The position numbers were made by a program, and so were the translations under genes. From assembly GCF_054482595.1 (NCBI RefSeq), contig NZ_CM137008.1: DNA of 64,000 nucleotides; one strand, 5' to 3'. A model generated the notes under the pieces. That model searched no databases, was not told the DNA's origin, and saw nothing but the letters and a program-made list of their open reading frames with translations. Below, in pieces: positions 2,219-11,573 of this stretch. Numbering within the stretch: the first letter of the stretch is position 1; each line of letters starts with the position of its first letter.

Positions 2219-2491
2219 ATGAATCTTGATGACATTATCAACAGCATGACGCCTGAGGTATACCAGCGTTTGTCGACCGCCGTTGAACTGGGGAAATGGC
2301 CTGATGGCGTTGCGTTGACCGAGGAACAAAAAGAGAACTGCCTGCAACTGGTGATGCTGTGGCAAGCCCGCAATAATACCGAAGCACAGCATATGACAAT
2401 TGACACAAATGGTCAGATGGTCATGAAGAGCAAACAACAGTTAAAAGAAGATTTTGGTATCTCAGCAAAGCCTATTGCCATGTTTAAGTAA
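2219..2491 (+). CDS. yeaC: DUF1315-family protein YeaC
   Basis: ORF 2174-2491; start placed at the internal MNLDDIINSMTPEVYQ to give 90 aa, matching recalled YeaC. Confidence 0.8.
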   Translation: MNLDDIINSMTPEVYQRLSTAVELGKWPDGVALTEEQKENCLQLVMLWQARNNTEAQHMTIDTNGQMVMKSKQQLKEDFGISAKPIAMFK

Positions 2492-2750
2492 GTGGTTTGT
2501 CCCCTTTTTGCCGCGGTTATAAAGGGGATAGCCAACAATAACCCCACGACTCATCTCAATTATCTCGTCACGACCAGGCAAAGCCCCAGCCCGGTCTCTT
2601 GCCGTCGCGTTCACGCCTGAATGACTTCTCCTGAACTTAAGTCTCAGACCTATTTGGCCGGTAATCCCTCTCAAATTTGCTCCTTTTGCGTTCAGCCTTC
2701 CATCAACCTGTAACAGAACCAGCCATTTTCTGCGTAATTGTGATCTGAGT

Positions 2751-2782
2751 TGTAAAACGCAGATCATTATCTGTGTTTTACA
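2751..2782. promoter_or_regulatory. 32-bp near-perfect palindrome (tgtaaaacgcagatca / ttatctgtgttttaca) about 80 bp upstream of ydjL; candidate operator
   Basis: 14 of 16 positions are self-complementary; outer 8-bp arms TGTAAAAC/GTTTTACA are perfect. No flanking T-run, so unlikely to be a terminator. Confidence 0.4.
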
Positions 2783-2860
2783 GATTTAATGTTGACCTCA
2801 AAAATCATGTGGGTAAGTATGATGACCATCTAAGCAAAACAAAACACAGAGGATGACGCA

Positions 2861-3937
2861 ATGAAAGCACTGGCTCGGTTTGGCAAAGCCTTTGGCGGCT
2901 ACAAGATGATTGATGTCCCACAACCCATGTGTGGCCCGGAAGATGTAGTGATTGAAATTAAAGCCGCGGCAATCTGCGGCGCAGACATGAAGCACTACAA
3001 TGTCGATAGCGGTTCTGATGAGTTTAACTCTATCCGCGGCCATGAGTTCGCAGGTTGTATTGCGCAGGTTGGTGAAAAAGTCAAAGACTGGAAAGTGGGG
3101 CAACGCGTCGTATCGGATAACAGCGGTCACGTTTGCGGCGTTTGTCCGGCCTGTGAACAAGGTGATTTTCTGTGTTGTACAGAAAAAGTAAACCTTGGTC
3201 TGGATAATAATACCTGGGGCGGTGGTTTTTCCAAATATTGTCTGGTTCCTGGTGAAATTCTCAAAATTCATCGTCATGCGTTGTGGGAAATCCCTGATGG
3301 TGTTGATTATGAGGACGCAGCCGTACTTGACCCTATCTGTAATGCCTACAAATCCATCGCGCAGCAATCGAAATTCCTTCCTGGTCAGGATGTGGTCGTC
3401 ATCGGCACTGGCCCACTCGGGCTGTTCTCCGTACAAATGGCGCGAATTATGGGGGCGGTAAATATCGTCGTCGTTGGTCTGCAAGAAGATGTGGCGGTCC
3501 GCTTCCCGGTTGCAAAAGAACTGGGTGCGACGGCAGTAGTAAATGGTTCTACCGAAGATGTGGTGGCGCGCTGCCAGCAAATTTGTGGCAAAGACAATCT
3601 GGGACTGGTGATTGAATGCTCCGGTGCCAATATCGCACTGAAACAAGCCATCGAAATGCTCCGCCCGAACGGGGAAGTTGTACGCGTTGGAATGGGCTTC
3701 AAACCTCTTGATTTCTCGATTAATGACATTACCGCCTGGAACAAAAGCATCATTGGGCATATGGCCTATGACTCCACCTCATGGCGTAACGCTATCAGGC
3801 TATTAGCCAGCGGCGCTATCAAAGTCAAACCGATGATCACGCATCGTATCGGCCTGTCGCAATGGCGCGAAGGGTTTGATGCGATGGTCGATAAAACCGC
3901 AATCAAAGTGATCATGACTTACGACTTTGATGAATAA
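2861..3937 (+). CDS. ydjL: Zn-dependent medium-chain alcohol/polyol dehydrogenase YdjL
   Basis: 358-aa ORF with GHEFAGCI zinc-ADH motif, Cys-rich structural zinc site (CGVCPACEQGDFLCC) and GTGPLG Rossmann motif. Confidence 0.9.
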   Translation: MKALARFGKAFGGYKMIDVPQPMCGPEDVVIEIKAAAICGADMKHYNVDSGSDEFNSIRGHEFAGCIAQVGEKVKDWKVGQRVVSDNSGHVCGVCPACEQGDFLCCTEKVNLGLDNNTWGGGFSKYCLVPGEILKIHRHALWEIPDGVDYEDAAVLDPICNAYKSIAQQSKFLPGQDVVVIGTGPLGLFSVQMARIMGAVNIVVVGLQEDVAVRFPVAKELGATAVVNGSTEDVVARCQQICGKDNLGLVIECSGANIALKQAIEMLRPNGEVVRVGMGFKPLDFSINDITAWNKSIIGHMAYDSTSWRNAIRLLASGAIKVKPMITHRIGLSQWREGFDAMVDKTAIKVIMTYDFDE

Positions 3938-3963
3938 CCACTCTCCTGAAGGAACGTTATCGC

Positions 3964-5343
3964 ATGGAACAGATAACAAAACCGCATTGTGGTGCACGGC
4001 TGGATCGCTTACCGGATTGCCGCTGGCATTCATCAATGTTTGCCATCGTCGCGTTTGGCTTGCTTGTCTGCTGGAGTAATGCCGTTGGTGGCTTGATCCT
4101 CGCGCAGCTGAAAGCGTTGGGCTGGACAGATAATTCCACCACAGCCACATTCTCAGCAATCACGACCGCCGGAATGTTTCTCGGTGCGCTGGTGGGCGGC
4201 ATCATTGGCGACAAAACCGGTCGCAGAAATGCGTTCATCCTCTATGAGGCCATTCATATTGCCTCGATGGTTGTCGGTGCTTTCTCACCGAATATGGATT
4301 TCCTTATTGCCTGCCGTTTTGTGATGGGAGTTGGGCTGGGAGCTTTACTGGTTACGCTGTTTGCTGGTTTCACCGAATATATGCCCGGTAGAAATCGTGG
4401 AACGTGGTCAAGTCGGGTTTCCTTTATTGGCAACTGGTCATATCCGCTCTGTTCATTGATAGCGATGGGACTCACGCCGCTGATTAGTGCAGAGTGGAAC
4501 TGGCGGGTACAACTGCTTATCCCTGCAATATTGTCGCTTATCGCTACGGCGCTGGCCTGGCGCTACTTTCCTGAATCCCCGCGCTGGCTGGAATCGCGCG
4601 GACGGTATCAGGAAGCCGAGAAAGTCATGCGGAGTATAGAAGAAGGCGTCATACGCCAGACAGGTAAACCTTTGCCGCCCGTGGTTATTGCTGATGACGG
4701 TAAAGCACCACAAGCGGTGCCATATTCAGCCTTACTGACAGGAGTATTACTGAAACGCGTGATATTAGGCTCTTGTGTGCTGATTGCCATGAACGTTGTG
4801 CAGTACACACTAATTAACTGGTTGCCAACGATATTCATGACCCAGGGGATTAATTTAAAAGACTCGATTGTTTTAAATACCATGAGTATGTTTGGCGCGC
4901 CATTTGGCATTTTTATTGCCATGCTGGTGATGGATAAAATTCCGCGTAAAACAATGGGTGTGGGGCTATTAATCCTGATTGCGGTGCTCGGATATATCTA
5001 TTCACTGCAAACCAGCATGTTGCTCATAACGTTGATTGGTTTCTTCCTGATTACTTTCGTCTATATGTACGTTTGCTATGCCTCGGCAGTGTATGTCCCT
5101 GAGATCTGGCCGACAGAGGCCAAACTCCGTGGCTCCGGTCTGGCGAATGCGGTAGGGCGAATCAGTGGTATTGCCGCACCTTATGCCGTTGCAGTGCTGC
5201 TCAGTAGTTATGGCGTTACGGGAGTCTTTATTCTTCTGGGGGCGGTTTCAATTATTGTCGCAATTGCTATCGCCACCATTGGAATCGAAACCAAAGGTGT
5301 CTCCGTTGAAAGTTTAAGTATTGATGCAGTAGCCAATAAATAA
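3964..5343 (+). CDS. ydjK: MFS-family transporter YdjK (sugar-porter-like)
   Basis: 459-aa hydrophobic ORF with MFS signature GDKTGRRNA after TM2 and a repeated 6+6 TM layout; starts 27 bp after ydjL. Confidence 0.88.
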   Translation: MEQITKPHCGARLDRLPDCRWHSSMFAIVAFGLLVCWSNAVGGLILAQLKALGWTDNSTTATFSAITTAGMFLGALVGGIIGDKTGRRNAFILYEAIHIASMVVGAFSPNMDFLIACRFVMGVGLGALLVTLFAGFTEYMPGRNRGTWSSRVSFIGNWSYPLCSLIAMGLTPLISAEWNWRVQLLIPAILSLIATALAWRYFPESPRWLESRGRYQEAEKVMRSIEEGVIRQTGKPLPPVVIADDGKAPQAVPYSALLTGVLLKRVILGSCVLIAMNVVQYTLINWLPTIFMTQGINLKDSIVLNTMSMFGAPFGIFIAMLVMDKIPRKTMGVGLLILIAVLGYIYSLQTSMLLITLIGFFLITFVYMYVCYASAVYVPEIWPTEAKLRGSGLANAVGRISGIAAPYAVAVLLSSYGVTGVFILLGAVSIIVAIAIATIGIETKGVSVESLSIDAVANK

Positions 5344-5359
5344 TACGGGTGGATTCAAA

Positions 5360-6403
5360 ATGAAAAATTCAAAAGCAATATTGCAGGTGCCGGGCACAAT
5401 GAAAATTATTTCAGCAGAAATACCAGTGCCTAAAGAAGATGAAGTTTTGATTAAAGTAGAATATGTCGGTATTTGTGGTTCAGATGTACATGGTTTTGAA
5501 TCAGGTCCGTTTATTCCGCCTAAAGACCCAAATCAAGAAATTGGCCTGGGTCATGAATGCGCCGGGACGGTTGTGGCTGTGGGAAGCCGCGTGCGCAAAT
5601 TTAAACCGGGGGATCGGGTAAATATCGAACCTGGCGTTCCTTGCGGTCACTGTCGTTACTGTCTGGAAGGCAAATATAACATCTGCCCGGACGTTGATTT
5701 TATGGCGACACAACCCAACTACCGCGGCGCATTAACGCACTATCTGTGTCATCCGGAGAGCTTTACTTACAAACTGCCCGACAATATGGACACGATGGAA
5801 GGGGCGCTGGTGGAGCCTGCCGCAGTCGGGATGCATGCCGCGATGCTGGCAGATGTTAAACCGGGTAAGAAGATAATTATTCTGGGAGCGGGTTGTATTG
5901 GTTTGATGACGTTGCAAGCGTGCAAATGCCTGGGAGCAACGGAAATTGCCGTCGTTGATGTGCTGGAAAAACGTCTGACAATGGCGGAACAGCTTGGTGC
6001 GACAGTGGTTATTAACGGCGCAAAAGAAGACACTATTGCACGCTGTCAGCAATTTACCGAAGACATGGGCGCAGATATTGTTTTCGAAACAGCGGGTTCT
6101 GCGGTCACCGTTAAACAGGCACCTTATCTGGTAATGCGCGGCGGTAAAATTATGATTGTTGGTACTGTACCCGGCGATTCGGCAATCAATTTCCTCAAAA
6201 TCAATCGCGAAGTCACTATCCAGACGGTATTCCGCTATGCCAATCGTTATCCGGTCACGATTGAAGCTATTTCTTCAGGGCGATTCGATGTGAAATCGAT
6301 GGTGACACATATTTACGATTACCGTGATGTACAACAGGCATTTGAAGAGTCGGTTAACAACAAACGCGACATTATTAAAGGCGTTATTAAGATTAGCGAT
6401 TAA
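5360..6403 (+). CDS. ydjJ: Zn-dependent alcohol/polyol dehydrogenase YdjJ
   Basis: 347-aa ORF; GHECAGTV zinc-ADH motif, CGHCRYCLEGKYNIC structural zinc site, GAGCIG Rossmann motif. Confidence 0.9.
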   Translation: MKNSKAILQVPGTMKIISAEIPVPKEDEVLIKVEYVGICGSDVHGFESGPFIPPKDPNQEIGLGHECAGTVVAVGSRVRKFKPGDRVNIEPGVPCGHCRYCLEGKYNICPDVDFMATQPNYRGALTHYLCHPESFTYKLPDNMDTMEGALVEPAAVGMHAAMLADVKPGKKIIILGAGCIGLMTLQACKCLGATEIAVVDVLEKRLTMAEQLGATVVINGAKEDTIARCQQFTEDMGADIVFETAGSAVTVKQAPYLVMRGGKIMIVGTVPGDSAINFLKINREVTIQTVFRYANRYPVTIEAISSGRFDVKSMVTHIYDYRDVQQAFEESVNNKRDIIKGVIKISD

Positions 6404-6423
6404 TTAATACGGGAGAACAGAAC

Positions 6424-7260
6424 ATGCTCGCAGATATCAGATATTGGGAAAACGATGCCACAAATAAACGTTATGCTATTGCCCATTTTAATGTATGGAA
6501 TGCAGAAATGTTGATGGGCGTTATCGACGCAGCCGAAGAAGCGAAATCACCGGTTATTATTTCTTTTGGCACAGGTTTTGTCGGCAACACCTCATTTGAA
6601 GATTTCTCTCACATGATGGTATCAATGGCACAAAAAGCAACGGTGCCGGTAATAACTCATTGGGATCATGGTCGGAGTATGGAGATTATTCATAACGCCT
6701 GGGCTCATGGTATGAATTCATTAATGCGTGATGCTTCCGCATTTGATTTCGAAGAAAATATTCGCTTAACCAAAGAGGCTGTCGATTTCTTCCATCCGCT
6801 GGGTATTCCGGTAGAGGCGGAATTAGGGCATGTCGGTAATGAAACCGTTTATGAGGAAGCGCTGGCGGGCTATCACTATACCGATCCTGACCAGGCGGCT
6901 GAATTTGTTGAACGTACGGGCTGTGACTCATTGGCTGTCGCCATCGGCAACCAGCATGGGGTTTATACGTCAGAGCCACAATTGAACTTTGAGGTCGTCA
7001 AACGCGTACGCGATGCCGTGTCTGTTCCGCTGGTTTTGCATGGCGCATCGGGGATCAGTGATGCCGACATTAAAACTGCAATTTCGTTGGGTATCGCGAA
7101 AATCAACATCCATACGGAGCTCTGTCAGGCCGCAATGGTCGCAGTGAAAGAAAACCAGGATCAGCCTTTCCTGCATTTAGAACGTGAAGTACGTAAAGCT
7201 GTAAAAGAACGGGCATTGGAAAAAATTAAACTGTTCGGTTCTGATGGCAAAGCGGAATAA
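6424..7260 (+). CDS. ydjI: Class II ketose-bisphosphate aldolase family protein YdjI
   Basis: 278-aa ORF recognised as a GatY/KbaY/FbaA-like class II aldolase (HxDH and His-rich metal site). Confidence 0.88.
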   Translation: MLADIRYWENDATNKRYAIAHFNVWNAEMLMGVIDAAEEAKSPVIISFGTGFVGNTSFEDFSHMMVSMAQKATVPVITHWDHGRSMEIIHNAWAHGMNSLMRDASAFDFEENIRLTKEAVDFFHPLGIPVEAELGHVGNETVYEEALAGYHYTDPDQAAEFVERTGCDSLAVAIGNQHGVYTSEPQLNFEVVKRVRDAVSVPLVLHGASGISDADIKTAISLGIAKINIHTELCQAAMVAVKENQDQPFLHLEREVRKAVKERALEKIKLFGSDGKAE

Positions 7261-7264
7261 TGAT

Positions 7265-8212
7265 ATGGATAATCTCGACGTTATTTGTATAGGTGCCGCT
7301 ATTGTTGATATTCCATTGCAACCGGTCAGTAAAAATATCTTTGATGTGGATTCTTATCCTCTTGAAAGAATCGCAATGACCACCGGGGGTGATGCAATAA
7401 ATGAAGCAACAATTATTTCTCGTCTGGGCCATCGTACAGCATTAATGAGGCGTGTTGGTAAAGATGCCGCAGGACAATTTATTCTCGACCATTGCCGCAA
7501 AGAGAATATTGATATTCAAAGCCTGAAACAGGACGTCAGCATAGATACCTCTATTAATGTTGGACTGGTGACGGAGGATGGCGAGCGGACGTTTGTCACA
7601 AACCGTAACGGCAGTCTGTGGAAATTGAATATTGACGATGTTGATTTTGCTCGGTTTTCCCAGGCAAAATTATTATCACTGGCCAGTATTTTCAACAGTC
7701 CACTATTGGATGGTAAAGCGCTAACAGAAATTTTTACGCAAGCTAAAGCCCGGCAGATGATTATCTGTGCCGATATGATCAAACCGCGGTTGAATGAAAC
7801 GCTGGATGATATTTGCGAAGCATTGAGTTATGTCGATTATCTGTTTCCTAATTATGCCGAGGCAAAATTACTCACCGGGAAAGAGACACTGGATGAAATT
7901 GCTGACTGCTTTCTTGCGTGCGGCGTAAAAACGGTGGTGATTAAAACGGGTAAAGACGGCTGCTTTATCAAGCGTGGTGACATGACGATGAAGGTGCCGG
8001 CGGTCGCAGGAATAACCGCCATCGACACCATTGGCGCGGGCGATAACTTTGCTTCAGGTTTTATTGCGGCACTGTTAGAAGGCAAAAATCTGCGTGAATG
8101 CGCACGCTTTGCCAATGCAACGGCGGCTATCTCGGTTCTAAGCGTCGGTGCCACCACCGGCGTAAAAAACAGAAAGCTGGTCGAACAATTGCTGGAAGAA
8201 TACGAAGGATAA
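7265..8212 (+). CDS. ydjH: PfkB-family carbohydrate kinase YdjH
   Basis: ORF 7244-8212; start placed at MDNLDVICIGAAIVD (315 aa); C-terminal GAGDNFASGF ribokinase/PfkB motif. Confidence 0.88.
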   Translation: MDNLDVICIGAAIVDIPLQPVSKNIFDVDSYPLERIAMTTGGDAINEATIISRLGHRTALMRRVGKDAAGQFILDHCRKENIDIQSLKQDVSIDTSINVGLVTEDGERTFVTNRNGSLWKLNIDDVDFARFSQAKLLSLASIFNSPLLDGKALTEIFTQAKARQMIICADMIKPRLNETLDDICEALSYVDYLFPNYAEAKLLTGKETLDEIADCFLACGVKTVVIKTGKDGCFIKRGDMTMKVPAVAGITAIDTIGAGDNFASGFIAALLEGKNLRECARFANATAAISVLSVGATTGVKNRKLVEQLLEEYEG

Positions 8213-8221
8213 TGAAGGCAA

Positions 8222-9202
8222 ATGAAAAAGATACCTTTAGGCACAACGGATATTACGCTTTCGCGAATGGGGTTGGGGACATGGGCCATTGGCGGCGGTC
8301 CTGCATGGAATGGCGATCTCGATCGGCAAATATGTATTGATACGATTCTTGAAGCCCATCGTTGCGGCATTAATCTGATTGATACTGCACCAGGATATAA
8401 TTTTGGCAATAGTGAAGTTATCGTCGGTCAGGCGTTAAAAAAACTGCCCCGTGAACAGGTTGTAGTAGAAACCAAATGCGGCATTGTCTGGGAACGAAAA
8501 GGAAGTTTATTCAACAAAGTTGGCGATCGGCAGTTGTATAAAAACCTTTCCCCGGAATCTATCCGCGAAGAGGTAGAAGCCAGCTTGCAACGTCTGGGTA
8601 TTGATTACATCGATATCTACATGACGCACTGGCAGTCGGTGCCGCCATTTTATACGCCGATCGCTGAAACTGTCGCAGTGCTTAATGAGTTAAAGGCTGA
8701 AGGGAAAATTCGCGCTATAGGCGCTGCTAACGTCGATGCCGACCATATCCGCGAGTATCTGCAATATGGTGAACTGGATATTATTCAGGCGAAATACAGT
8801 ATCCTCGACCGGGCAATGGAAAACGAACTGCTGCCGCTATGTCGTGATAATGGCATTGTGGTTCAGGTTTATTCCCCGCTAGAGCAGGGATTGTTGACCG
8901 GCACCATCACTCGTGATTACGTTCCGGGCGGCGCTCGGGCAAATAAAGTCTGGTTCCAGCGTGAAAACATGCTGAAAGTGATTGATATGCTTGAACAGTG
9001 GCAGCCACTTTGTGCTCGATATCAGTGCACAATTCCCACTCTGGCACTGGCGTGGATATTAAAACAGAGTGATTTAATCTCCATTCTTAGTGGGGCTACT
9101 GCACCGGAACAGGTACGCGAAAATGTCGCAGCACTGAATATCAACTTATCGGATGCAGACGCAACATTGATGAGGGAAATGGCAGAGGCCCTGGAGCGTT
9201 AA
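8222..9202 (+). CDS. ydjG: Aldo-keto reductase YdjG
   Basis: 326-aa ORF with AKR fold hallmarks (IDTAPGY, catalytic tetrad context); starts 10 bp after ydjH. Confidence 0.88.
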   Translation: MKKIPLGTTDITLSRMGLGTWAIGGGPAWNGDLDRQICIDTILEAHRCGINLIDTAPGYNFGNSEVIVGQALKKLPREQVVVETKCGIVWERKGSLFNKVGDRQLYKNLSPESIREEVEASLQRLGIDYIDIYMTHWQSVPPFYTPIAETVAVLNELKAEGKIRAIGAANVDADHIREYLQYGELDIIQAKYSILDRAMENELLPLCRDNGIVVQVYSPLEQGLLTGTITRDYVPGGARANKVWFQRENMLKVIDMLEQWQPLCARYQCTIPTLALAWILKQSDLISILSGATAPEQVRENVAALNINLSDADATLMREMAEALER

Positions 9203-9228
9203 ATACTCAACACGATTCACCTCTGTTT

Positions 9229-9256
9229 CTGTGAAAACTGTGATGAAAATCTGTGA
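9229..9256. promoter_or_regulatory. Three direct CTGTGA repeats (starts 9229, 9238, 9251) upstream of ydjF; candidate operator or CRP half-sites
   Basis: Read directly: ctgtgaaaa / ctgtgatgaaaat / ctgtgattcaaa, between the ydjG stop and the ydjF GTG start. Confidence 0.3.
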
Positions 9257-9338
9257 TTCAAACAGGTTATTTTGAAAGTAAACATCGGTTATGCGATAAT
9301 CGCGCTAATGTGATGTAAAAAGATACAGGGGTGTAATC

Positions 9339-10097
9339 GTGGCGGCAAAAGACAGGATTCAGGCAATTAAGCAAATGGTTGCCAACGATAAAAAGGTGAC
9401 AGTCTCAAATTTGAGTGGGATTTTTCAGGTAACCGAAGAAACCATTCGCCGCGATCTTGAGAAGCTGGAAGATGAAGGCTTTTTGACCAGAACCTATGGT
9501 GGTGCTGTTTTAAATACAGCGATGTTGACGGAGAATATCCATTTTTATAAGCGCGCTTCATCGTTTTATGAAGAGAAGCAGCTTATTGCACGCAAGGCAC
9601 TACCCTTTATCGACAATAAAACCACCATGGCAGCCGATTCCAGTAGTACCGTAATGGAATTGCTCAAATTGTTACAGGACCGTAGTGACCTGACGTTGCT
9701 AACCAACTCGGCGGAAGCGATTCATGTTCTGGCTCAGTCAGAAATTAAAGTCGTTTCAACGGGTGGGGAACTAAACAAAAATACACTTTCACTGCAAGGA
9801 AGAATTACTAAAGAGATCATCAGCCGCTACCATGTCGATATCATGGTAATGAGTTGTAAAGGTCTTGATATTAACAGCGGCGCGCTGGACTCTAATGAAG
9901 CGGAAGCTGAAATCAAAAAGACAATGATCCGTCAGGCGACAGAAGTTGCGTTATTGGTTGATCACTCTAAGTTTGATCGCAAAGCTTTTGTCCAGTTAGC
10001 TGACTTTAGTCATATTAATTACATAATAACTGATAAATCACCGGGTGCAGAGTGGATAGCATTTTGCAAAGACAATAATATCCAGCTGGTGTGGTAA
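9339..10097 (+). CDS. ydjF: DeoR-family transcriptional regulator YdjF (GTG start)
   Basis: 252-aa ORF; N-terminal HTH (TVSNLSGIFQVTEETIRRDLEKLE) and DeoR C-terminal sugar-phosphate-binding domain; initiation codon is GTG. Confidence 0.88.
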   Translation: MAAKDRIQAIKQMVANDKKVTVSNLSGIFQVTEETIRRDLEKLEDEGFLTRTYGGAVLNTAMLTENIHFYKRASSFYEEKQLIARKALPFIDNKTTMAADSSSTVMELLKLLQDRSDLTLLTNSAEAIHVLAQSEIKVVSTGGELNKNTLSLQGRITKEIISRYHVDIMVMSCKGLDINSGALDSNEAEAEIKKTMIRQATEVALLVDHSKFDRKAFVQLADFSHINYIITDKSPGAEWIAFCKDNNIQLVW

Positions 10098-10214
10098 TTT
10101 AAGCACACGTTGTCAATATTATTTGTTCCTGCGCCTGGAAATAAAATGATGATAAAGATGCGGCAAGTGAATTTGCCGCAATTGCTACCTTTTTTAGCAA
10201 ATCCGAGGCACCCA

Positions 10215-11573
10215 ATGGAACAATATGATCAAATTGGCGCAAGACTGGACCGCTTGCCTTTGGCCCGGTTTCATTATCGTATATTTGGTATTATAAGCTT
10301 TAGTCTGTTATTAACAGGGTTTTTGAGTTACTCCGGTAATGTCGTCTTAGCAAAGCTGGTAAGCAATGGATGGTCAAATAATTTCCTCAATGCCGCCTTT
10401 ACCTCGGCATTAATGTTTGGTTATTTCATCGGCTCTCTTACCGGTGGGTTCATCGGTGATTACTTTGGGCGGCGCAGGGCGTTTCGCATAAATCTTCTCA
10501 TCGTCGGTATTGCTGCAACAGGGGCCGCTTTTGTCCCTGATATGTACTGGCTCATCTTCTTTCGCTTCCTGATGGGAACAGGAATGGGGGCGCTGATTAT
10601 GGTTGGCTATGCCTCATTTACGGAGTTTATCCCCGCGACGGTGCGTGGAAAATGGTCCGCGCGGCTCTCATTTGTTGGTAACTGGTCGCCCATGCTGTCT
10701 GCGGCGATAGGTGTGGTGGTTATCGCTTTTTTTAGTTGGCGGATAATGTTTCTGCTGGGTGGTATTGGCATACTGTTAGCCTGGTTTCTTTCAGGTAAAT
10801 ACTTTATTGAGTCGCCACGATGGCTGGCAGGGAAAGGGCAAATCGCAGGTGCAGAAAGCCAACTTCGTGAAGTAGAGCAGCAAATTGAAAGAGAGAAGAG
10901 TATTCGTTTACCCCCGCTTACTTCGTATCAGAGCAACAGCAAGGTTAAAGTAATCAAGGGTACTTTCTGGCTCCTGTTTAAAGGTGAAATGTTACGACGT
11001 ACATTAGTCGCGATTACTGTTTTAATTGCAATGAACATTTCGCTTTATACCATCACCGTATGGATACCGACCATATTTGTTAACTCCGGCATTGATGTCG
11101 ATAAATCAATATTAATGACCGCTGTTATTATGATTGGCGCTCCGGTAGGAATATTTATTGCGGCATTAATTATTGATCATTTTCCTCGTCGGTTATTTGG
11201 CTCCACCTTACTTATTATTATTGCCGTGTTAGGCTATATCTATTCAATTCAGACTACAGAGTGGGCGATTTTAATCTATGGCCTGGTGATGATATTCTTT
11301 TTATACATGTATGTTTGCTTCGCGTCGGCGGTTTATATCCCGGAGCTTTGGCCAACGCATTTACGCCTGCGCGGTTCGGGTTTCGTTAATGCCGTCGGAC
11401 GGATCGTCGCAGTCTTCACGCCCTATGGCGTTGCGGCATTATTAACACATTATGGGTCGATCACGGTGTTTATGGTACTTGGTGTCATGTTATTGCTCTG
11501 TGCGCTGGTTCTCTCCATTTTTGGCATCGAAACGCGAAAGGTGTCGTTGGAAGAGATTTCTGAGGTGAATTAA
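10215..11573 (+). CDS. ydjE: MFS-family transporter YdjE
   Basis: ORF 10110-11573; start placed at MEQYDQIGARLDRL (452 aa); GDYFGRRRA MFS motif; paralogous in layout to YdjK. Confidence 0.85.
   Translation: MEQYDQIGARLDRLPLARFHYRIFGIISFSLLLTGFLSYSGNVVLAKLVSNGWSNNFLNAAFTSALMFGYFIGSLTGGFIGDYFGRRRAFRINLLIVGIAATGAAFVPDMYWLIFFRFLMGTGMGALIMVGYASFTEFIPATVRGKWSARLSFVGNWSPMLSAAIGVVVIAFFSWRIMFLLGGIGILLAWFLSGKYFIESPRWLAGKGQIAGAESQLREVEQQIEREKSIRLPPLTSYQSNSKVKVIKGTFWLLFKGEMLRRTLVAITVLIAMNISLYTITVWIPTIFVNSGIDVDKSILMTAVIMIGAPVGIFIAALIIDHFPRRLFGSTLLIIIAVLGYIYSIQTTEWAILIYGLVMIFFLYMYVCFASAVYIPELWPTHLRLRGSGFVNAVGRIVAVFTPYGVAALLTHYGSITVFMVLGVMLLLCALVLSIFGIETRKVSLEEISEVN

Follow-up and report, generated by a model that had tools for sequence, protein, structure and literature searches.

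We consider it probable, from comparative sequence analysis, that the 32-bp palindrome at positions 2751-2782 of the window (the whole 64-kb stretch of DNA analysed here) belongs to the operator region that serves the ydjLKJIHG promoter, and that the operon's own DeoR/GlpR-family regulator, YdjF, is the protein that binds and represses there. The first-pass annotation had put the palindrome forward as a candidate operator whose length and symmetry fit a dimeric repressor. One part of that proposal stands, namely that the ydjL promoter carries a conserved cis-regulatory DNA element; the other part does not, for the 32-bp palindrome is not itself the functional unit. Cross-phylum comparison places the recognition unit of one dimer in a 17-19 bp palindrome centred on 2777, rather than in 32 bp centred on 2766/2767.

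The ydjL promoter region and its conservation

2751..2782, no strand assigned: the reported palindrome, comprising two adjacent operator-like units in mirror orientation
2792..2797, plus strand: predicted -35 hexamer TTGACC of the ydjL promoter, from conservation in 21 species
2815..2820, plus strand: predicted -10 hexamer AAGTAT, after a 17-bp spacer, with the AAnTAT pattern conserved across species
2861..9202, plus strand: ydjL-ydjK-ydjJ-ydjI-ydjH-ydjG operon, the presumed target, from the annotation

The palindrome, TGTAAAACGCAGATCATTATCTGTGTTTTACA, is located in the 369-bp yeaC-ydjL spacer, and the K-12 copy (NC_000913.3 1861411-1861442) is identical to it. Its geometry proved to be as first described: of the 16 pairs formed between its halves 14 are complementary, the exceptions being 2765/2768 and 2759/2774, the outer 8-bp arms (TGTAAAAC / GTTTTACA) match throughout, the symmetry ends at 2751 and 2782, and the distance from the end of the palindrome to the ydjL ATG (2861) is 78 bp, where about 80 bp had been estimated. 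A search for the same structure elsewhere, which had been suggested as a check, returned it as the sole ungapped 16+16 site with at least 14 matches in the 64 kb, and it is single-copy in E. coli. The chance expectation for a palindrome of at least 14/16, as set by 200 dinucleotide-preserving shuffles of the 64-kb window, is a mean of 0.03 per window, 3% of the shuffles having one.

Downstream of the palindrome, TTGACC and AAnTAT are predicted from their conservation to constitute a sigma-70 promoter with a transcription start site (TSS) near 2827-2828 (K-12 about 1861365, minus strand), relative to which the palindrome spans about -77 to -46. Across the 21 species the TTGA of the -35 hexamer (2792-2795) never varies, and conservation reaches at least 90% at G2791 and C2796. 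The supplement text of the Cappable-seq and SMRT-Cappable-seq studies contains no entry for coordinates or genes of the ydjL region. The ydjL promoter has been found to be inactive in culture and to come on in the mouse gut, in a study that described its regulation as unknown (PMC6561318).

An alignment of upstream regions from 21 Enterobacterales revealed a conserved block at approximately 2735-2797, TATTTGTGATCTGAGTTGTGAAATGCAGATCAATATCTGTGTTTTAAAGATTTnATGTTGACC, with sequence further upstream being unrelated between genera. K-12 and this strain show about 20 differences within 2492-2718 and are identical over 2719-2824. A 66-bp probe covering 2735-2800 was recovered from 4207 of 5426 complete E. 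coli genomes, in one copy each and always at 90% identity or more, whereas a control 66-mer from the same spacer (2560-2625, megablast) was recovered from only 1293 genomes, 757 of them at 80-90% identity. The palindrome is invariant among the sampled E. coli variants, and the commonest polymorphism of the block, G2747A, falls outside it.

Two features of the surrounding DNA were also observed in E. coli. The part of the spacer near yeaC (2492-2718) is hypervariable, with many genomes at 80-90% identity or under the megablast threshold; and about 1200 of the 5426 complete genomes are without the whole ydjL-ydjE island and its upstream spacer (window 2492-11573), as in strain E47, where pncA comes straight after yeaC.

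Symmetry as high as 14/16 is confined to Escherichia; the arms of Citrobacter, Klebsiella and Raoultella, TGTGAAAT and GTTTTAAA, are complementary at 11/16. Positions 2754, 2758 and 2781 differ between Escherichia and the Citrobacter/Klebsiella consensus; all three lift the complementarity, from 11/16 to 14/16, and at least two seem to represent derived states in Escherichia. Such lineage-specific symmetry would be in keeping with a chance palindrome or a neutral remnant devoid of function, an explanation that we nevertheless regard as scarcely credible in view of the very low number of such sites expected per window, the conservation, which is much stronger than that of the flanks both within E. 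coli and from species to species, and the match to the cross-phylum motif described below.

Three further identities for the element were rejected. A repetitive extragenic or mobile-element inverted repeat is ruled out by the occurrence of the palindrome at one place per genome in 4207 genomes. The arms of a TyrR box (TGTAAA-N6-TTTACA) are present, but here they lie 20 bp apart, and other genera have TGTGAA/TTTAAA instead. FNR-like core and Cra/LacI-type readings of the arms are ruled out by spacing and non-conservation.

Predicted operator units shared across phyla and the YdjF regulator

We located YdjL orthologues in 58 loci. Enterobacterales have the ydjL(K)JIHG...F cluster intact, and so do Firmicutes, Atopobiaceae and Megamonas. 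Versions of the cluster containing ydjF (loci L024-L047) occur in Lachnospiraceae, Eubacteriaceae, Anaerococcus, Megamonas, Enterococcus and Atopobiaceae, with YdjL at 76-85% amino-acid identity; that such distant taxa have the cluster in common at this level of identity implies horizontal transfer.

A motif was learned by expectation-maximisation on 13 ydjL upstream regions from Firmicutes and Actinobacteria, with no Enterobacterales input. It has the form TTTGTTTGTTTCACAGATT (reverse complement AATCTGTGAAACAAACAAA) and occurs in tandem copies 20-21 bp apart. The unit underlying it is a 7-3-7 palindrome, seen in its perfect form, TTCTGTG-AAA-CACAGAA, in locus L038, with perfect versions being present in Serratia and Enterobacillus as well. 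Two units were distinguished at the ydjL promoter:

2768..2786, no strand assigned: strong operator unit C, the predicted primary YdjF site (core 2769-2785, centre 2777)
2748..2764, no strand assigned: weak operator-like unit B, AGTTGTA-AAA-CGCAGAT (centre 2756, 21 bp or two helical turns upstream of unit C)

When both strands of the window (128 kb) were scanned with the learned motif, the best site was 2768-2786, TATCTGTGTTTTACAGATT, at 25.1 bits, with the runner-up at 13.9 bits; an arms-only symmetric matrix likewise ranked unit C first in the window. This unit is a 17-19 bp palindrome of the 7-3-7 form (A)ATCTGTG-N3-CACAGAT(T). Its core, ATCTGTG-TTT-TACAGAT, consists of the right half of the 32-bp palindrome plus 3 bp, the unit extending 3-4 bp past the end of that palindrome. 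The position of unit C was also the top match in 11 of the 13 other Enterobacterales loci scanned (12-21 kb each), at ydjL -91 to -95, and in a held-out Lachnospiraceae locus, outside the training set, the top match was upstream of the first gene of the ydjL-containing operon, 16 bp before a -35-like TTGATT.

Unit B scores 2.3 bits and ranks 176th in the window with the arms-only matrix, which is not significant alone; it is conserved in Enterobacteriaceae, and in Serratia sp. H1w the aligned unit B is a good copy of the motif (18.5 bits), 21 bp from unit C. Tandem 20-21 bp arrays are clear in Firmicutes and Serratia, and in E. coli the second unit is weak. As the two roughly palindromic units stand side by side, they mimic one long palindrome about the midpoint 2766.5, and this arrangement accounts for the long palindrome noticed in the first-pass annotation. 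A third unit 21 bp upstream of unit B (centre ~2735) was considered and rejected as a poor match that is not conserved outside Escherichia. A full-text literature search for the palindrome and operator strings returned no match.

The centre of unit C (2777) lies 15 bp before the ydjL -35 hexamer (2792), near -50, so that the unit sits upstream of the -35 and leaves the core promoter uncovered. This operator-to-(-35) geometry travels with the cluster: in Firmicutes the distance from the operator centre to the -35 is 16 bp, with even the ATG-TTGA in between being kept.

The regulator gene and the elements upstream of it are as follows:

9339..10097, plus strand: ydjF, encoding a DeoR/GlpR-family regulator, the predicted binder (Pfam HTH_DeoR, 2.9e-17; DeoRC, 2.4e-49)
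9248..9266, no strand assigned: operator-like site AATCTGTGATTCAAACAGG in the ydjG-ydjF spacer, upstream of ydjF (centre 9257)
9272..9300, plus strand: ydjF promoter TTGAAA-17-GATAAT, as read from the sequence

YdjF, which had been named at the outset as a protein to try against the palindrome, emerges from gene context as the best candidate binder: the regulator is encoded within the cluster and the motif co-occurs with the cluster across phyla. A ydjF orthologue is present in the cluster at 37 of the 39 ydjL loci with cluster context, the contigs of the other two ending inside ydjK. Three features expected of a DeoR/GlpR operator were found here: a cognate regulator accompanying the operon, a palindromic site of about 16-20 bp, and co-occurrence of the motif with the regulator's operon across distant genomes. 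Conservation of the helix-turn-helix among YdjF orthologues was not taken as proof of a shared specificity; it does not discriminate, because all of the DeoR family have the TIRRDL recognition helix. Published accounts (PMC4797297; PMC6055005) list YdjF as uncharacterised, and our literature search for YdjF binding, knockout, ChIP-exo or iModulon data found nothing specific.

The operator-like site upstream of ydjF ranks sixth in the window with the arms-only matrix and, with the full matrix, scores 9.6 bits; it is almost unchanged across 20 Enterobacterales. Its centre lies 15 bp before the -35, the same geometry as at ydjL, and a similar second box, TCTG-N4/5-TGTGWAAA, is found upstream of both strong sites (ydjL and ydjF). 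The ydjF promoter is a constitutive sigma-70 promoter identified by genomic SELEX with RNA polymerase only (PMC3946193). Since RNA polymerase alone recognises this promoter, an operator-like site there fits negative autoregulation.

CRP at the ydjL promoter and the RNA reading of the palindrome

2736..2757, no strand assigned: CRP-like site AATTGTGATCTGAGTTGTAAAA (centre 2746.5, about -81), overlapping unit B and the palindrome's first 7 bp

Binding of CRP had also been suggested as a point to examine, and the answer is available in the literature: ydjLKJIHG is Crp-activated in vivo, and its promoter was bound by Crp-cAMP in an electrophoretic mobility shift assay (EMSA; Li et al. 2021, PMC8085971). 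Within the spacer, 2736-2757 has the best CRP-like score, 8.8 bits by a rough home-made matrix, and is positionally conserved. Its TGTGA half-site (2739-2743) is perfect and invariant in 21 Enterobacterales, with a poor right half. The invariant TTGTGATC was tried as a YdjF half-site and rejected; as it fits the 7-3-7 unit in no register, it is read instead as a CRP half-site. We regard 2736-2757 as a putative CRP site, its invariant TGTGA half being immediately upstream of the palindrome. By the same rough matrix, the best CRP-like site of the window by far is a near-consensus one in the gapA-msrB spacer (1627-1648, AAATGTGATTTTCATCACGATT, 20.6 bits).

It could be asked whether the palindrome is itself the CRP site, or that of another global or unrelated regulator, with YdjF not being the binder. 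Binding of CRP to the promoter fragment in EMSA is compatible with this, as is the perfect TGTGA found at the start of the left arm in other genera, the 22-mers from that point scoring 6-8 bits with the rough matrix. We nonetheless hold it to be improbable, on the following grounds: 1) The 22-mer centred on the palindrome (2756-2777) is outside the eight best CRP-like sites of the spacer and thus scores below 1.3 bits. 2) CRP half-sites at 6-bp spacing are not found inside the palindrome, the inner arms being GCAGA/TCTGT. 3) The strongest and most widely conserved part, ATCTGTG-N3-CACAGAT, is mis-spaced relative to TGTGA-N6-TCACA. 4) The motif recurs with ydjF-containing clusters in Firmicutes, which, to our knowledge, are without the enterobacterial CRP system.

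The original description also held that the palindrome has no U-tract and is not a terminator, which is essentially right: the tail ATTTAATGTT has 5 T in 8, and the stem has 4 G-C pairs out of 15. A consensus terminator scanner rated the palindrome as weakly terminator-like, and Term-seq shows no 3' end at K-12 18613xx-18615xx, a range that covers it. The Term-seq 3' end of yeaC is at K-12 1861655 (window 2538), where it follows a hairpin, TCCCCTTT...AAAGGGGA, that lacks a T-tract (window 2500-2538). Adams et al. used a ydjL leader construct that began at window 2384, inside yeaC, and observed strong Rho-dependent termination at K-12 1861188 (about window 3005), approximately 145 nt into ydjL; their LB OD 0.4 set had no detectable ydjL 3' end. 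A start at 2384 together with termination at about 3005 implies that the palindrome is transcribed in some RNAs, and, with the start inside yeaC and the termination Rho-dependent, the read-through RNA would cross the operator and die inside ydjL.

Given such transcripts, the palindrome could act as an RNA hairpin, serving for attenuation, termination or RNA stability, within a long ydjL leader arising by read-through from msrB-yeaC or from the yeaC-internal start, which Adams et al. took as the ydjL 5' end. Beyond the weak flag of the terminator scanner, this reading draws on the predicted fold of the region (-18.4 kcal/mol, z = -3.8), on the pairing of 83% of cells across 21 species (plus strand, G-U allowed), and on a second palindrome, TGATCTGAGTTGT/AAAACGCAGATCA (2741-2766, 11/13), which overlaps the left half of the first, has the left arm in common with it and would be mutually exclusive with it as a hairpin. 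The pairing value, though, equals that of the column-shuffle control and includes one compensatory change; the columns are conserved rather than covarying, so the covariation test is uninformative. We found no evidence for an RNA switch between the 2741-2766 and 2751-2782 hairpins, and Rfam gave no match at E<=1 in 2300-3000. The lack of a Term-seq 3' end over the palindrome, and of a ydjL 3' end in the LB OD 0.4 set, also speaks against a hairpin of this kind. Further, the conserved sequence has an abrupt beginning at about 2735 and each genus has its own upstream genes, so that no conserved upstream promoter could feed the hairpin. Complementarity between the left and right halves is lacking in Serratia and Enterobacillus, where unit C is a perfect DNA palindrome. 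Hence, an RNA role for the palindrome is unlikely, and we attach very little probability to the leader-hairpin explanation.

Mode of regulation and comparison with known systems

3167..3185, no strand assigned: candidate auxiliary operator TTTCTGTGTTGTACAGAAA in ydjL codons 103-108 (centre 3176, 12.1 bits)

The motif has a further copy inside ydjL, 399 bp downstream of unit C, a distance equal to 38 turns of 10.5 bp. It is present at +306 in all 13 other Enterobacterales loci that were scanned and in further ones that were read, and its distance to the main site is 397-401 bp in most species. Synonymous codon variability, computed on 23 Enterobacterales ydjL sequences, is lowest in the entire gene in the 7-codon window over this site (0.117 against a mean of 0.63, rank 1 of 349). 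In Firmicutes the internal site is not retained. A site of this kind, inside a gene and downstream of the promoter, is easier to reconcile with a looping repressor than with an activator, and the spacing suggests that it is an auxiliary operator for DNA looping.

The most likely mechanism is repression by YdjF, probably by blocking CRP-dependent activation and possibly by looping. In the absence of inducer, YdjF oligomers would occupy roughly -80 to -41, and this occupancy would exclude CRP and the C-terminal domain of the RNA polymerase alpha subunit, thereby blocking CRP-dependent activation. The third copy of the motif, 399 bp downstream in ydjL, might stabilise YdjF binding through a loop. 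A sugar-phosphate of the pathway, such as L-glycero-L-galacto-octuluronate 1-phosphate, the product of the kinase YdjH, would then be expected to release YdjF, which may also regulate its own synthesis through the matching site upstream of ydjF.

The same sites could instead serve YdjF as an inducer-dependent activator or dual regulator, with CRP further upstream; from about -50 YdjF would touch sigma region 4 or the alpha subunit of RNA polymerase. The DeoR family includes the activator FucR, and several features of the ydjL promoter would suit such a role: the operator centre is fixed at 15-16 bp from the -35 in both Enterobacterales and Firmicutes although their sequences have diverged, the -10 hexamer AAGTAT is a weak one, the site leaves the core promoter uncovered, and an operon that is off in culture and on in the gut is an equally good fit to activation. 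We see this as a real, if minor, possibility, against which four points can be set: 1) The same site is found upstream of ydjF, whose promoter RNA polymerase recognises unaided. 2) The constrained copy 399 bp downstream in ydjL has no obvious role for an activator. 3) In some Firmicutes loci (L025) the tandem array runs into the -35. 4) Most members of the DeoR/GlpR family are repressors.

The predicted arrangement has counterparts in three kinds of known system. GlpR binds ~20-bp palindromic operators that lie in tandem, about two helical turns apart, near a CRP-dependent promoter. The ydj system resembles the glp regulon in comprising a sugar-catabolic operon, a DeoR/GlpR-type regulator, a CRP-dependent promoter and, by expectation, a sugar-phosphate inducer, and in its tandem arrays of 20-21 bp operators, which are here found mainly in Firmicutes. 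It differs from GlpR in that the motif is ATCTGTG-N3-CACAGAT and not the GlpR consensus, with binding being predicted only, and in that E. coli ydjL has a single strong unit, placed upstream of the -35 and not over the core promoter.

Looping operators are known from DeoR (deoO1/O2/OE), LacI (lacO1-O2, 401 bp apart) and GalR (galOE-OI), with OE of GalR sitting upstream of the -35 at about -60. As in these systems, the ydj operon combines a promoter operator with a candidate auxiliary operator about 399 bp away in the first structural gene, at a spacing near a whole number of helical turns; unlike in these systems, looping at ydj is deduced from the motif match and synonymous-site constraint, and the internal site is restricted to Enterobacterales. 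The third parallel is with anti-activation by CytR, a member of the LacI family that requires protein-protein contact with CRP. At ydjL too a predicted repressor site is interleaved or overlapping with a CRP site upstream of the -35 of a CRP-activated promoter, but here competition for overlapping DNA would be the simpler reading. The predicted ydjL operator is an element of an ordinary kind that was previously undescribed, a repressor or activator site of a local regulator and not a new mechanism.

A broader evolutionary scenario can be offered tentatively, and we think it somewhat less probable than not. The ydj cassette, including its regulator, operator and -35 geometry, may have moved among Firmicutes, Actinobacteria and Enterobacterales, and the Enterobacterales may then have added an interleaved CRP half-site, allowing anti-activation, and the operator in ydjL codons 103-108, allowing a 399-bp repression loop similar to that of lacO1-O2. 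If this were true, the palindrome would offer a ready means of identifying the gut-derived inducer of the operon, which is expressed in the mouse gut and not in culture.

YdjF is among the remaining uncharacterised transcription factors of E. coli, and the ydj operon, silent in the laboratory and reliably induced in the mouse gut, has been used as the trigger of a gut biosensor. The operator motif, the predicted promoter layout, the CRP overlap and the candidate looping site make the regulation of ydj directly testable, and the motif allows a genome-wide search for further YdjF targets.
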